In this document: in pieces, positions 3,899 to 58,105 of the stretch | Numbering within the stretch: the first letter of the stretch is position 1 | Layout of the letters: each line of letters begins with the position of its first letter | Source: Candidatus Saccharimonadales bacterium | GTDB taxonomy: Bacteria > Patescibacteriota > Saccharimonadia > Saccharimonadales > UBA10212 | DNA length: 64,000 nt | NCBI GenBank assembly: GCA_040900055.1 | Contig: JBBDZU010000002.1 | Coordinates: 127,725 to 191,724 of the forward strand | Reading direction: 5' to 3' | Notes under the pieces: generated by a model | Databases searched by the model: none | The model's input: only the letters and a program-made list of their open reading frames with translations | What the model was told of the DNA's origin: nothing | Program-made: the position numbers and the translations under genes

Positions 3899-4339
3899 AT
3901 GACCGATAAAGACCAGATTAAAGAGATAGTCCAAAATGTTGCCCAACTCCAAGACCTAAAGCAGTGGGAAAAGCTGGAGCATTATTTTGTTAAGAAACCT
4001 TATATAGACAGCAGGGCCCTAAATGGCGAAGCTCCAGCAGCTATCTCTAAGCGGCGGCTAATTGATGGCTGGCGCAGAGAAATAGGCTCCTATTTTTATG
4101 CCACTAGACATTTTATAAAACGCTTGGCGGTTAGAATGCTTAATTCGCGGCGAGCCAAAGTCACCACGGCAGTAGAACATGTTCACTACGTGGCCGATAG
4201 AGGTGAAAGGTATGTTTGGACGGTTCGTGGTACCATTGACTACATTTTCATTAAGACCACAGGTGGCACTTGGAAAATTAGCCAAATGATATTTCGCTTA
4301 CAGGATCAAGCTGTCCGTCCACTAGGCGCTGCCGCTTAA
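3899..4339 (+). CDS. SnoaL-like / NTF2-fold protein
   Basis: 146 aa from the ATG after an AAAGGAG SD. The longer ORF from 3707 overlaps tRNA-Ser and is rejected. The sequence pattern resembles DUF4440/SnoaL. Confidence 0.5.
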   Translation: MTDKDQIKEIVQNVAQLQDLKQWEKLEHYFVKKPYIDSRALNGEAPAAISKRRLIDGWRREIGSYFYATRHFIKRLAVRMLNSRRAKVTTAVEHVHYVADRGERYVWTVRGTIDYIFIKTTGGTWKISQMIFRLQDQAVRPLGAAA

Positions 4340-4402: not shown

Positions 4403-5074
4403 TTGAACATCCTTATTGTTTACGCGCATCACGAGCCAAGCTCCTTTACGGCGGCTATGAAAAATGCAGCGGTTGAAACTTTAACTCGCCAGGGGCACCT
4501 GGTAACGGTTTCTGATTTATATGGGCAGGGTTTTAGCTCGGTGGCTCAAAAATGGGATTTTGTAACAACTAGCGGCAATCATTTTAACTATATGCTGGAA
4601 CAACGACACGCCGCGCGTTTAAACATGGCTTTCTCGCCGGATATTGTGGCCGAGATTCAAAAGGTCCAAGCCACCGACTTGTTGCTGCTTATAACTCCGA
4701 TTTGGTGGTTTAGCGTACCGGCCATTTTAAAAGGCTGGTTTGACAGGGTGCTAGCCATGGGTGTGGCCTGGGATGGCGGTAAAATTTATGAGAACGGCTT
4801 GCTCCGCGGAAAACAAGCTATGGTTATTGCATCGGCTGGGGGACCGGCCGAATATTACCGTGAGAGTGGCCGCCACAAGGCAAACGTCGCTCAGATACTT
4901 CACCCAATTAATCATGGGACCTTGGCCTTTTGCGGTTTAAATGTCCACGAGCCATTTGTGGGGCTAAATATTTTAGGACGCGACCAAGCTAGTCGTGAGC
5001 AACTGCTTAAAGATCTGCAGTTTCGCCTGGAGCACTTTGTGGATAGCCCCCAGTGGCTTATCCACTTTAGCTAG
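4403..5074 (+). CDS. flavodoxin-like NAD(P)H:quinone oxidoreductase (NQO1/Flavodoxin_2 family)
   Basis: 223 aa. MNILIVYAHHEPSSF N-terminus and PIWWFSVPAILKGWFDRV motif. TTG start. Confidence 0.75.
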   Translation: MNILIVYAHHEPSSFTAAMKNAAVETLTRQGHLVTVSDLYGQGFSSVAQKWDFVTTSGNHFNYMLEQRHAARLNMAFSPDIVAEIQKVQATDLLLLITPIWWFSVPAILKGWFDRVLAMGVAWDGGKIYENGLLRGKQAMVIASAGGPAEYYRESGRHKANVAQILHPINHGTLAFCGLNVHEPFVGLNILGRDQASREQLLKDLQFRLEHFVDSPQWLIHFS

Positions 5075-7467: not shown

Positions 7468-7902
7468 ATGGCTAAAGTTCAGCTGTCTGACGAGGAACTG
7501 AAAAAGAAACTTACGCCTGAACAATACCGCATTCTTCGGCAAAAAGGCACGGAAGCGCCTTTCTCCGGTAAGTACCTAGACCACAAAGAAAAGGGCATGT
7601 ATACCTGCGCAGCCTGTGGCGTCCGACTTTTTAGCAGTGACACCAAATTTGACTCCGGTACCGGCTGGCCAAGCTTTTATGACGTTACGTCAAGTGACGC
7701 CGTTAAATTAGCAGAAGATAGCAGCCATGGTATGAACCGCGTAGAAGTTACCTGCGCCAACTGCGGCAGTCACTTAGGGCATGTTTTTAACGATGGACTT
7801 ACGACCCTGCCTGCCGGCAGGCAGGCTACCGGCCAGAGATTTTGCATTAACTCGGCTTGCCTCGGTTTTATGCCAGAAGGCAGCTCTAAGGCCAAAGGCT
7901 AG
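7468..7902 (+). CDS. msrB: peptide-methionine (R)-S-oxide reductase MsrB, with in-frame palindrome insertion
   Basis: 144 aa. Two CxxC pairs and GHVFNDG...RFCINS. An extra [10 protein letters not shown] sits where homologs have about 3 residues. Confidence 0.93.
7806..7825. repeat. GC palindrome family copy 2 (CCTGCCTGCCGGCAGGCAGG)
   Basis: Perfect 20-bp palindrome inside msrB. Confidence 0.95.
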
Positions 7903-50086: not shown

Positions 50087-50587
50087 ATGAAATACCGGCT
50101 TAACAAACAAAAAGAACCAAGAGTCCCCAAAAACTTGGGCGGTTTTACAATTATCGAGGTTGTTATTGTGCTGGCTATCGCTGGTCTAATTATGGCCATA
50201 GTTTTTATAGCCGTACCTCAACTTAACCGCAACGCTCGAGATAATGCCCGGCAAAACGTTGCCAATCGTTTGCACTCAGAACTTGGGACCTACGCTGCCA
50301 ATAATAGCGGAACCTATCCATTTACCACTTCGGCGCTAGCTGATTTCTCTAGCCGCTATGCCTCGACCATTAAGATGACTAATCCATCAACTGGCAGTAC
50401 GTACTCGCTAGACTTCGCTAGCAGTGATGGAGCAAATCCCAGTGCCGATCAAATCCTTATTCATCGCGGCGCTAGGTGTACCGGCGAACAAGCCTCTGGC
50501 ACCAGCTCCTCAGCCACTACCAGATCTTATGCGCTGCGGGTAGCGCTGGATAGATCAAACATTTTCTACTGCATCGACAACGGATAG
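50087..50587 (+). CDS. pilA: type IV major pilin
   Basis: 166 aa. Leader ...KNLGG|FTIIEVVIVLAIAGL with G at -1, F at +1 and E at +5. Confidence 0.85.
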   Translation: MKYRLNKQKEPRVPKNLGGFTIIEVVIVLAIAGLIMAIVFIAVPQLNRNARDNARQNVANRLHSELGTYAANNSGTYPFTTSALADFSSRYASTIKMTNPSTGSTYSLDFASSDGANPSADQILIHRGARCTGEQASGTSSSATTRSYALRVALDRSNIFYCIDNG

Positions 50588-50661
50588 ACCTACTTTGGAC
50601 AGCCAAAGTAGCAAAACCGCCGGGCGCGTCGCCAAGCTTGAGTAGCGGTTGTTTAAAACAG

Positions 50662-50681
50662 CCTGCCTGCCGGCAGGCAGG
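50662..50681. repeat. GC palindrome family copy 3
   Basis: Perfect CCTGCCTGCCGGCAGGCAGG. Confidence 0.95.
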
Positions 50682-50906
50682 GCTCGCTGTGGATCTCACC
50701 CTCACCATTTTCACTGGAAATGGTGAGGGGCTCAAACAGTCCTCGCGACCAAGTACGCCTCTTTAATAAACAACAGACTACTCAGGTTAACTCCTTATGC
50801 CCGGACCCATAAATTGGGCATGTAGGCGAGCCTGAGCTAAGCACGTCAAAAGCATCAACTTAATAATGCCGAGGACTGTCCGATCCGCCAGCTGGCGGAG
50901 AGGGCC

Positions 50907-50928
50907 GCCTGCCTGCCGGCAGGCAGGC
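50907..50928. repeat. GC palindrome family copy 4 (22 bp)
   Basis: GCCTGCCTGCCGGCAGGCAGGC. A CCGCCAGCTGGCGG palindrome lies adjacent at 50885-50898. Confidence 0.95.
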
Positions 50929-51066
50929 TTGTCGTCCCGCAGGCTTGTTTGTGCGCTTTGACAGGGGTTGGCGTCAGCCGAGCCTACGCCCAGAGCTTTT
51001 TTTGCTACTTTTGTCGGCACAAAAGTAGCGAATACTTTGCTTCTTTAGAAAGAAGCAGTTAGCATT

Positions 51067-51876
51067 ATGGTAATGCTTGTTACGGCTATTGCCTTAGCTA
51101 TTTTAGGCTTATGCTTGGGGAGCTTTGTAAACGCCCTGGTTTGGCGCATACATGTCAATAAAAATTGGGTGAAGGCTAGAAGCCAGTGCCCAACCTGCGG
51201 CCATATTCTATCGGCACGCGATCTAATTCCGGTTATATCTTGGTTATCATTACGCGGTCGTTGCCGTTACTGCGGCAATAAAATCTCTTGGCAGTATCCT
51301 ATTTCCGAACTTGGCCTATCAGCTGTTTTTATGACTTCTTATTATTTTTGGCCTGGCGGGTTAACTAGCACCGGTCCTAAAATTTTATTCATTAGCTGGC
51401 TTATTTCGGCTGTAGGTCTTTTGGCCTTATTTATTTATGACCTTCGTTGGATGTTGCTGCCCAGTAAAATCCTGGCTGCTACAGCTTTGGTGGCCATAAC
51501 CGGACGGCTGATTTACTTAATCGGCTTTGAACCGTCAAAAACTGAAGGCCTTGCCAATTGGCTACTTAGCATCACAGTAGCCAGTGGTCTATTTGGGTTA
51601 TTTTATATAATTTCACGCGGTCGCTGGATAGGCGACGGGGACATTAGCCTTGGTCTAATTACCGGCACCTTGCTGGCCGATCCATTGCGAAGTTTTTTAA
51701 TGATTTTTTTGGCGTCGCTAATTGGCACTTTAGTGGTGTTGCCGGCCATTATCAGCGGTCGGCGGGCGCTTGGTACTAGGGTGGCCTATGGCCCGTTTTT
51801 GATTTTAGCGGCATTTATTGTCCTTTTGTTTGGCGATCCATTTATCGATTGGTATAAGGCGCTGATTTTAGTTTAG
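51067..51876 (+). CDS. pilD: prepilin peptidase / N-methyltransferase
   Basis: 269 aa. CPTCGH...CRYCG zinc motif. Multi-TM protein with GDGD-type aspartate motifs. Confidence 0.9.
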   Translation: MVMLVTAIALAILGLCLGSFVNALVWRIHVNKNWVKARSQCPTCGHILSARDLIPVISWLSLRGRCRYCGNKISWQYPISELGLSAVFMTSYYFWPGGLTSTGPKILFISWLISAVGLLALFIYDLRWMLLPSKILAATALVAITGRLIYLIGFEPSKTEGLANWLLSITVASGLFGLFYIISRGRWIGDGDISLGLITGTLLADPLRSFLMIFLASLIGTLVVLPAIISGRRALGTRVAYGPFLILAAFIVLLFGDPFIDWYKALILV

Positions 51877-51922: not shown

Positions 51923-52813
51923 ATGAGGGGCTTTAAAAAGGCTTTGGACTGGGCCCGCCCAGCTCTAAATCCTGAAGTGACAAGAGAGGGAATACCTCTA
52001 TTTGAAGCATCAAGATTTAGGGCAGGGTATACCTTTATTGAGGCCCTAATCGTGCTGGCCATTTCTACATCTTTTTTCCTGGGCGCCATGGTCTTAGTAA
52101 ACGGCCAGCAATCTAAAACGGGCTTCTCCGGAGCCATGCGTGACCTGGAATCTAGGGTTAGAAACTACGTATCACAAGTTACCAGCGGGACTTTTCCAGA
52201 CAGCGCAGGCTATAGCTGCGAGGTTAACGCCACCGGTCATCCGGTTTTAAGCCCGGCAGCCGGAGGCATTGGCGAAAGTTCAGAATGTCTATTTTTAGGC
52301 AGAGCTATCCAAGCGGTGCCTAGTCACGATCATTTGTATATTTATCCGGTTATCGGCACTAAAAACGCTTATAACGGTGCCAACAACTTAGGTACGGCCG
52401 CCACGGGTTTTAATCAAATCAACACTAGCCCTGCCGTAAGCTCTGGCGGCCAGTTTCTGTTAGTAGACGAATATAAGCTCCTAGATGGCGCCAGCGTCCT
52501 CAAAACTTCTGTTGCGGGCTCTAGCGGCGATTTTAGCCTGGCGGGTTTTTATACGGCTTTATCAAGTGACGGTGGTTCGGCCAGTAATAGCTTACTAGCC
52601 AAGGCCTACCCACTAATTAGCACGACCGACACCATTAAATCGGCAGCCTTAAAAAGCTGCTTAGAAAAAAACCCACCGTGTGCCGAACTTTCCGATTTTA
52701 GCCGTTGGGACTTATGTGTCCAAAGCGGCGACGGTAATCAAACTGCTATTTTAAGCATTAACAACACCGCCGCGGGAATTACCACCAAATTAAGTTTCGA
52801 GGTCTGCTCATGA
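51923..52813 (+). CDS. minor (pseudo)pilin with hairpin element in the leader
   Basis: 296 aa. ...RFRAG|YTFIEALIVLAIS. The N-terminal MRGF followed by a 32-aa insert suggests an interrupted short leader. Confidence 0.75.
   Translation: MRGFKKALDWARPALNPEVTREGIPLFEASRFRAGYTFIEALIVLAISTSFFLGAMVLVNGQQSKTGFSGAMRDLESRVRNYVSQVTSGTFPDSAGYSCEVNATGHPVLSPAAGGIGESSECLFLGRAIQAVPSHDHLYIYPVIGTKNAYNGANNLGTAATGFNQINTSPAVSSGGQFLLVDEYKLLDGASVLKTSVAGSSGDFSLAGFYTALSSDGGSASNSLLAKAYPLISTTDTIKSAALKSCLEKNPPCAELSDFSRWDLCVQSGDGNQTAILSINNTAAGITTKLSFEVCS
51955..52027. repeat. prepilin-leader hairpin element, copy 1
   Basis: Outer arms CCCAGCTCTAAATCCTGA / TCAAGATTTAGGGCAGGG. Inner hairpin AGAGG-GAATA-CCTCT. About 85% identical to copy 2 by eye. 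Confidence 0.75.
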
Positions 52814-53358
52814 ATTTAATTACTAAAGACTCAACTTTTAGCTTGATTCACTTAATAAAGCGGGGGTCTCGCCCAGCCTTAAATCCTGAAGGCAGAAGAG
52901 AGGGAATACCTCTATTTCGATTATCAAGATTTAGGGCTGGGGACACCATCGTGGAAGTTCTAGTCAGCGTCACTGTTTTAGCACTAGTGCTAGCCGGCGC
53001 TTATGTTTCTTCTTCTAACAGCTTGCGTCAGGGTACTGCCGCTGGCAACCGTAATCAAGCTTTGGGCCACGCCCAAGCTCAAATTGGTCTTATAAAAAGC
53101 GCTGCCGGCACTAATGCGGCTACCTTGAACTCTTACAAAATTAACCAACCATTTTGCATAGCTTCAGACGGCACGGTCGATACCAGCAGTATCAACCAAG
53201 CAGAAGGTGTTTGCTATCTTAGCTCCTGGACGCCGTATGGAGTGGGCGTAAAATACAGCTCGTCTAATCAGGTATTTACGGTCACCGCCAAATGGCCAGG
53301 CGGAGGGGCCACCGCCCAGGACCAACTGGTGCTTTATTATAAAGCGGGGAGCAATTAG
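52810..53358 (+). CDS. minor (pseudo)pilin with hairpin element in the leader
   Basis: 182 aa. ...RFRAG|DTIVEVLVSVTVLALVLAG. ATGA overlap with the upstream gene. Confidence 0.7.
   Translation: MNLITKDSTFSLIHLIKRGSRPALNPEGRREGIPLFRLSRFRAGDTIVEVLVSVTVLALVLAGAYVSSSNSLRQGTAAGNRNQALGHAQAQIGLIKSAAGTNAATLNSYKINQPFCIASDGTVDTSSINQAEGVCYLSSWTPYGVGVKYSSSNQVFTVTAKWPGGGATAQDQLVLYYKAGSN
52869..52942. repeat. prepilin-leader hairpin element, copy 2
   Basis: CGCCCAGCCTTAAATCCTGAAG...AGAGGGAATACCTCT...ATCAAGATTTAGGGCTGGGG. Confidence 0.75.
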
Positions 53359-58067: not shown

Positions 58068-58105
58068 CCCGATGGGCGTCCGCCAGCTGGCGGACGCCCA
58101 TCGGG
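58068..58105. repeat. perfect 38-bp palindrome
   Basis: CCCGATGGGCGTCCGCCAGCTGGCGGACGCCCATCGGG. Its core CCGCCAGCTGGCGG also occurs at 50885-50898. Confidence 0.95.

Follow-up and report, generated by a model that had tools for sequence, protein, structure and literature searches.

In the 64-kb stretch of a Saccharimonadales genome analysed here (the window), type IV pilus genes form an operon on the + strand, in which the genes for the major pilin and PilD are separated by a spacer of 479 nt (50588-51066; Table 1). Six of the 16 perfect hairpins with a stem of at least 9 bp in the whole window fall within this spacer, and shuffled windows contain 0-5 such hairpins in total compared to the 16 of the real one. 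Minimum free energies of -207 and -209 kcal/mol were computed for its two strands, corresponding to z = -8.3 and -7.8 relative to shuffles. As stated in the original prediction, the spacer has no credible open reading frame (ORF), since none of its three ORFs of at least 40 amino acids has a Pfam match and since the indels that separate it from its homologue in locus L025 have lengths that are not multiples of three and break the frames. ARAGORN detected no tmRNA in the window, and its two ordinary tRNAs both lie outside the spacer. At the downstream edge, a conserved GTTAGCAT or GGTAATGCTT is found right at the pilD start codon (window 51060-51075; L003 6560-6580; L025 about 3990-4010), which could indicate a leaderless or very-short-leader pilD mRNA.

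The spacer had been described as two long imperfect inverted arms with the architecture of a MITE-like element or a large structured RNA. All sequence features named in that description are present, one of them at a shifted coordinate. Terminal hairpins with stems of 9 bp (50590-50611) and 11 bp (51004-51029) are each adjoined by AAAGTAGCAAAA or its complement (50605-50616 and 51000-51011), the 20-nt palindrome occurs exactly at 50662-50681 and 50908-50927, and each arm has its second hairpin (50699-50729 and 50884-50899). The pair ACAGTCCTCG/CGAGGACTGT exists as well, at 50736-50745 with the complement at 50870-50879 (chance expectation 0.03), although 50743, where the left member had been placed, is 7 nt off. 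The two arms are real as series of collinear motifs, but their similarity outside these motifs is low: a global alignment of one arm with the reverse complement of the other scores 51, compared to 15 +/- 5 in shuffles, and the palindrome supplies most of this score. Because this alignment is weak beyond the short motifs, it was discarded as evidence that the arms make up one long inverted repeat, and we regard the arms as collinear motifs rather than as a recent inverted duplication. The homology of the left arm is evident only via a family alignment and a covariance model.

This family was assembled starting from locus L025, whose PilD is 60% identical to that of the window and whose pilin-pilD spacer measures 382 nt, the right half of it aligning with 50815-50995 of the window except for a 32-nt gap at the right palindrome. 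Two conserved motifs gave the pattern GTCAAAAGCA-N8-16-GCCGAGGACTG, which was scanned against JGI metagenomes and yielded 13 loci. Twelve of these were confirmed by a covariance model covering the 111-position core only (34-122 bits); they are alignable over about 145 nt and represent nine distinct sequences, and the remaining locus, L038, was rejected as a chance match. No pilus genes were found near the 13 pattern-derived loci, their neighbours being unrelated housekeeping genes (SecA/RF2, L25/UvrC, FtsK/AhcY and a 5S/23S rRNA operon). The family is low-copy, and its conservation extends over metagenome contigs of Saccharimonadales type with many different genomic contexts. In L035 (4320-4421, with the 5S rRNA at 4653-4766), the 5' half of the family member is normal and the 3' half is like the 3' half of the minus-strand copy of L025, so that this member could represent a second subtype or have arisen by recombination.

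The RNAalifold consensus of ten sequences, from a family with a size of roughly 145-190 nt, is a rod of 37 base pairs, 17 of which show compensatory double changes among the homologues. Paired cells reach 92.4%, compared to 84.4% with shuffled partners and 24-38% with partners slid by 1-3 columns. None of 500 shuffles attained the observed covariation score, a control that is no probability, and the alignment comprises only 10-12 sequences. Among the predicted pairs, 21 G.U/U.G cells stand against one C.A cell, and because G.U so greatly exceeds C.A, the sense strand is that of the aligned orientation, which is the + strand for the right arm. The rod is closed by the stem P1 and further comprises the helix CUGAGC/GCGUCA, a long helix that reads GUCAAAAGCAC/GUGCGCUUUGAC in the majority of members, a bulge in the 5' strand that is rich in A and U, and the short helix P3 (AGCC-GAGG / CCGC-A-GGCU). 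Above P3 lies a nearly invariant asymmetric loop, ACUGUUUGA on the 5' side and GAGUU on the 3' side, which is non-helical and the most conserved part of the RNA, and on which a cap hairpin is placed whose sequence is free and whose length ranges between 4 and about 25 bp. GCCGAGGACUGU is invariant in 10/10 aligned members, this motif being partly contained in the search pattern; because the pattern fixed two motifs, the invariance of these two is partly by construction. As read from the alignment, the loop region resembles a K-turn in having a helix, a one-strand loop, facing 5'-GA on both strands and a second helix (P3, UGUUU, GA[hairpin]GA), but differs from it by a loop of 5 nt instead of 3 and by an extra UU on the 3' strand.

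Table 1. Positions of the pilus genes and of the proposed RNA genes and their elements in the window.
Feature	Position	Strand	Remark
pilB	46007	+	type IV pilus operon
pilT	47766	+	type IV pilus operon
pilC	48895	+	type IV pilus operon
Major pilin gene	50087-50587	+	same operon
winL 3' hairpin CTACTTTGG-ACAG-CCAAAGTAG	50590-50611	-	directly after pilin stop codon
winL	about 50618-50808	-	5' GGGUCCGGGCAU (50808-50797) to GCGCCCGGCG 3' (about 50627-50618)
Palindrome insertion in winL	50660-50682		P3/P2 junction, 3' strand; side hairpin in fold
winL apical hairpin CCCTCACCATTT...AAATGGTGAGGG	50699-50729	-	at the family's variable apical position
winL signature motif CGCGAGGACUGUUUGA	50732-50747	-	ACAGTCCTCG falls inside
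AT-rich junction ATAAAT, 6 nt	50809-50814		between winL and winR 5' ends
winR	about 50815-50992	+	5' UGGGCAUG to GCCCA 3'
winR signature motif GCCGAGGACUGUCCGA	50868-50883	+	from family alignment
winR apical hairpin TCCGCCAGCTGGCGGA	50884-50899	+	native; counterparts CCGCCAACTGGCGG in L025R and CCGCCAGCAGGCGG in L030
winR insertion, about 32 nt	50902-50933		holds 22-nt palindrome 50907-50928; boundary +/- about 8 nt
U-run, then winR 3' hairpin GCTACTTTTGT-CGGC-ACAAAAGTAGC	50997-51029	+	U-run precedes hairpin
Second downstream hairpin TGCTTCTTT-AG-AAAGAAGCA	51038-51057	+	ends 9 nt before pilD start codon
pilD	51067-51876	+	same operon; followed by minor pilins

The spacer very likely consists of two diverged, mirror-image genes of this one small rod-shaped RNA family, winL on the - strand and winR on the + strand, the 5' ends of which lie head-to-head at a distance of 6 nt. 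The idea of a structured RNA is thereby supported, though as two opposed units of about 180 nt and not as one molecule of 440 nt. The core of winR (50829-50978) matches the covariance model with 73.4 bits (E 1e-16), and winR folded alone gives a closed rod of -89.8 kcal/mol (z -4.05). Its insertion of about 32 nt is opposed by a gap in 9/9 other aligned members and is an insert in the covariance-model alignment too. The highly diverged winL is alignable with the family and has a local covariance-model match at 50684-50748 (-), with E 0.003 in 800 nt; it starts with a GGGUCCGGGCAU that is identical in L025, L033 and L037, continues on the minus strand with CCUGAGUAG, CGCGAGGACUGUUUGA, a hairpin and GAGAUCCACAGCGA, and ends in GCGCCCGGCGG-UUUUG-hairpin. 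Folded alone, it is likewise a closed rod (-80.7 kcal/mol, z -4.1). In its P3, AGCC/GGCU is replaced by UCGC/GCGA, a compensatory change, and GUUGUUUA/UAAACAAC takes the place of the family helix GUCAAAAGC/GCUUUGAC; winL and L027 both keep the helices with different sequences. Some members, L034 and L040 among them, have a closing stem that is longer by 15-18 bp, with unrelated sequences.

In both copies, a U-run is located 5' of the 3' hairpin on the RNA's own strand, GUUUUG (50612-50617) preceding the hairpin of winL on the - strand, and this module of U-run plus hairpin is also found 3' of the RNA in L025, L030, L031, L033, L035, L036 and L037. The stem sequence of the left hairpin is kept in L003, L048 and L025, with a varying loop, and a counterpart of the second downstream hairpin, YTTCTTT-GR-AAAGAAR, occurs 3' of the RNA in L025, L035, L033 and L037. 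Because the U-run precedes the hairpin instead of following it, the 3' hairpins are not canonical terminators. A terminator scan of the spacer gave weak calls only, with a weak flag at 51001-51032 (+; tail TACTTTGCTT) and none on the left hairpin, and a promoter scan of the spacer found no sigma-70-like site. An A/T-rich hexamer as in the junction is also present just 5' of P1 in L031, L025R and L034 and might serve as promoter; with just 6 nt between the two 5' ends, each promoter would have to sit inside the opposite gene. We propose that winL and winR would be transcribed outward, starting near P1 from A/T-rich boxes at the 6-nt centre, and that transcription would end at the U-run and the conserved 3' hairpin, which would insulate both RNA genes against the transcripts of pilin and pilD. 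The RNA would act in trans, with its invariant K-turn-like apical loop as a putative protein-binding platform, and its position beside the pilin gene would reflect lineage-specific synteny rather than a function in the pilus.

Rfam 15 contains no relevant family for the spacer or its homologues: at the gathering threshold nothing was found in the whole window, and at E up to 10 the spacer and six homologous loci gave chance-level miRNA or snoRNA matches only; the families covered include 6S, SRP, RNase P, tmRNA and raiA. Most probably, the RNA represents a small-RNA family of Saccharimonadales that is new and has no match in Rfam 15. Like 6S RNA and small SRP RNA, it measures about 100-200 nt, forms one long irregular hairpin with paired termini, is encoded by a stand-alone gene with variable neighbours and occasional paralogues, and possesses conserved internal loops, which are protein-binding sites in the known RNAs and putative ones here. 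Besides 6S RNA, which often occurs in two copies, no other rod-shaped RNA is known to us to be widespread in bacteria. A highly diverged form of a described housekeeping RNA missed by the Rfam models, chiefly 6S RNA, would account for the rod with paired 5' and 3' ends and for a stand-alone gene with paralogues in housekeeping contexts, and our literature search gave no paper naming both Saccharibacteria and 6S RNA. We nevertheless judge it very unlikely, given that isolated copies have no 6S, SRP or other relevant match even at E up to 10 and that consensus and single-sequence folds lack the large two-sided central bubble of the 6S type, with no sizeable unpaired stretch beyond an A/U bulge on one side and the small apical loop. 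Also unlike 6S RNA, the apical loop is strongly conserved in its primary sequence. SRP RNA differs in that no GNAR tetraloop or AGCA loop is seen here, the apex being a freely varying hairpin, and the signature GCCGAGGACUGUUUGA ... GAGUUCCGCAGGCU sets the family apart from both RNAs.

The presence of this unit in differing genomic contexts across genomes could also suggest a non-autonomous mobile palindromic element of the MITE, ERIC or Correia type, inserted in the spacer twice or as a composite. Such elements likewise are hairpin-forming, intergenic units of 100-200 bp at non-orthologous sites with truncated copies, and truncated remnants do occur in L003 and L048, where only the outer ends, the hairpin plus CAAAACC.CCGGG, are left. 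Moreover, the pilin-pilD spacers of relatives range from 25 to 510 nt, with a closest PilD of only 63% identity, so that no precise empty sites are definable, and Logan contigs of run SRR27977660, from the same sample, stop at 50643 and resume at 50851. With these breaks (50643/50644 and 50850/50851) the central 207 nt of the spacer are unassembled in Logan, which may be caused by a co-existing variant or by low coverage; the breaks lie off the palindrome positions, and the idea of an invertible switch was set aside. Against a mobile element stands the copy number, tens to hundreds being usual for ERIC, Correia or MITE palindromes: neither BLAST of the spacer nor the covariance model found a copy in the 64-kb window outside the spacer, which contains two adjacent ones, and each pattern locus has one. 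There are no terminal inverted repeats, no direct repeats flanking the element and no target-site duplication; the terminal symmetry amounts only to the 12-nt AAAGTAGCAAAA and the hairpin, which are the common 3' module of the RNA genes. The arms, matching an element that is single-copy elsewhere, are too diverged for recent transposition, and their two-copy layout recurs in L025 despite a PilD of only 60% identity. The non-palindromic, asymmetric loops are best conserved, the compensatory changes come with the 21:1 strand bias of G.U over C.A, and a scan of IMG/VR with the RNA pattern gave no matches. Consequently, the MITE-like reading of the original prediction is not supported, and we consider a mobile element of any of these types improbable to a high degree.

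Comparison of pilin-pilD spacers bears on a third explanation, in which the element would act in cis on the pilus operon, either as a structured 3' UTR or an attenuator, by which the pilin mRNA would be stabilised and read-through into pilD metered, or through winL as an antisense RNA directed at pilin read-through. A search of 5.8 billion proteins returned no other PilD more than 63% identical to that of the window, and in a scan of GTDB genomes with PilD the species of the window was absent and the nearest representative 60% identical. RNA copies are present in or at the edge of the spacer in four other Saccharimonadales loci, and two more loci have remnants only. L025 has two copies in the same head-to-head layout (114 bits on the + strand; E 0.026 in 600 nt on the - strand), L027/L028 have one copy in the spacer on the - strand, L043 carries one immediately 3' of pilD, and L003 and L048 carry the remnants described above; in the window, a hairpin is found immediately 3' of the pilin stop codon. 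However, 7 of the 13 PilD-anchored loci have no copy, their spacers being short or unrelated, the orientation of the copies relative to the operon is not constant, and nine distinct homologues are located far from pilus genes, making a cis-acting pilus element a most improbable explanation. Judged from these sequences, the pilin-pilD arrangement is old and lineage-specific, and in some lineages it is undergoing decay. The spacer of L029 (1552-2061) is an AT-rich sequence of 510 nt without similarity to the RNA family, pointing to the pilin-pilD spacer as a hot spot for unrelated insertions. Decay is possible at this locus because L003 and L048 show it, and winR or winL could be a decaying pseudogene because the loop of winR is interrupted and winL is highly diverged; winR, with its insertion inside the conserved 3' loop, scores 73 bits versus 95-122 for the others.

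The 20-nt palindrome CCTGCCTGCCGGCAGGCAGG has four copies in the window, those at 50662, 50908 and 7806 being exact and the one at 375 having one mismatch, with 0.01 expected from shuffles. The original prediction had linked the palindromes in groES and msrB to the spacer element as to a larger, parent-like one. The direction is the reverse, as the palindrome is absent from all 11 other members of the RNA family, including the minus-strand homologues L025L and L027, and because it is absent from every homologue, it represents a secondary insertion in the RNA genes, as it does in msrB and groES. It is thus a spreading unit that invaded the RNA genes and not a fragment shed by them. In winR, it lies inside the 32-nt insertion on the 3' side of the apical loop and forms a side hairpin; the predicted folds of winR and winL show that the insertions sit where an extra side hairpin is tolerated. 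In both RNA copies, a family-native motif is found directly 3' of the palindrome, as GCAGGCTTGT, doubled in winR (50923-50932 and 50939-50948), and as GGCAGGCAGG-CTGTTTT in winL (50672-50689), where it is the native motif after the palindrome. This hints that integration may be guided by microhomology at GCAGGC-like sites.

Both protein genes read the palindrome in one and the same frame, as LPAGRQ, and keep their own reading frames intact. Relative to MsrBs from the PDB, the msrB copy (7806-7825) is a 7-residue insert, LTTLPAG, in the conserved DGP-PTG loop, and for the copy at the 3' end of groES (375-394) homology stops at residue 88, the last 8 residues, LPAGRQGK, replacing the normal end. 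REP/BIME elements are imperfect palindromes, 20-40 nt long, that carry a conserved GTAG at the 5' end and come in hundreds of intergenic copies together with a RAYT gene. The palindrome shares with Rickettsia palindromic elements (RPE) and REP sequences that it is short, dispersed and palindromic, and that insertion preserves the frame (21 nt for 7 amino acids in msrB; an 8-amino-acid C-terminus in GroES), with copies in RNA genes as well. Conversely, it is a perfect (GCCT)n/(AGGC)n palindrome of 20-22 nt, unlike the RPEs with their 100-150 bp and the REPs with their imperfect palindromes; the window showed neither a RAYT nor a transposase, only the msrB copy of the four has the GTAG flank, and two of the four lie in coding sequence. 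A possible role as uptake sequence was rejected, the 10-nt half-site never being found outside the full palindrome. The 22-nt palindrome was also encountered in IMG/VR contigs that are unrelated, classified as viral and have a higher GC content (0.53-0.62) (L045 at 2648, 9001, 10422 and 10690; L046 at 1537; L047 at 1568). Two copies in L045 share long flanks and, as in REPs, a 5' GTAG, and two further copies stand in inverted orientation with about 1.4 kb between them. L047 in addition contains ten tandem 21-nt units of a variant with two mismatches (3916-4124).

Other repeats were observed in the window. A second family, an imperfect palindrome of about 75 nt, is present at the 5' ends of two minor-pilin ORFs (51955-52030 and 52868-52945). 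It has the sequence CCCAGCyyTAAATCCTGAAG...GAGAGGGAATACCTCT...TCAAGATTTAGGGCwGGG, which reads similarly on both strands, and encodes RPALNPE..REGIPLF..SRFRAG just before the prepilin cleavage motif; half of it is also found upstream of pilD in L024. A 38-nt perfect palindrome at 58068-58105, between convergent ORFs, has a 16-nt core, TCCGCCAGCTGGCGGA, equal to the apical hairpin of winR (50884-50899).

Tiny genomes and an episymbiotic lifestyle are typical of Saccharibacteria and the other bacteria of the Candidate Phyla Radiation (CPR), and we know of almost no characterised non-coding RNAs in CPR bacteria; our literature search returned nothing relevant on non-coding RNAs of Saccharibacteria or on in-frame palindromes in CPR bacteria. 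As a tentative overall reading, to which we assign slightly less than an even chance, the locus would contain an undescribed class of sRNA, conserved across Saccharimonadales, with an invariant K-turn-like apical module that recruits a protein, and here duplicated head-to-head next to the major pilin gene. It would have been invaded by a self-propagating perfect palindrome of 20-22 nt that colonises RNA and protein genes while leaving them intact and that also occurs in unrelated IMG/VR contigs. The RNA is likely to be important, as inferred from a 16-nt loop motif that is invariant across organisms whose PilD is only about 60% identical. For annotation, two opposed RNA genes explain the MITE-like look of the pilin-pilD locus. 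The palindrome, as a 20-nt unit altering MsrB, the GroES C-terminus and RNA genes, would rank with the shortest invasive repeats so far known and offers a second handle, besides the concrete one that the sequence, structure and strand of the RNA family provide for work in cultivable TM7 strains.
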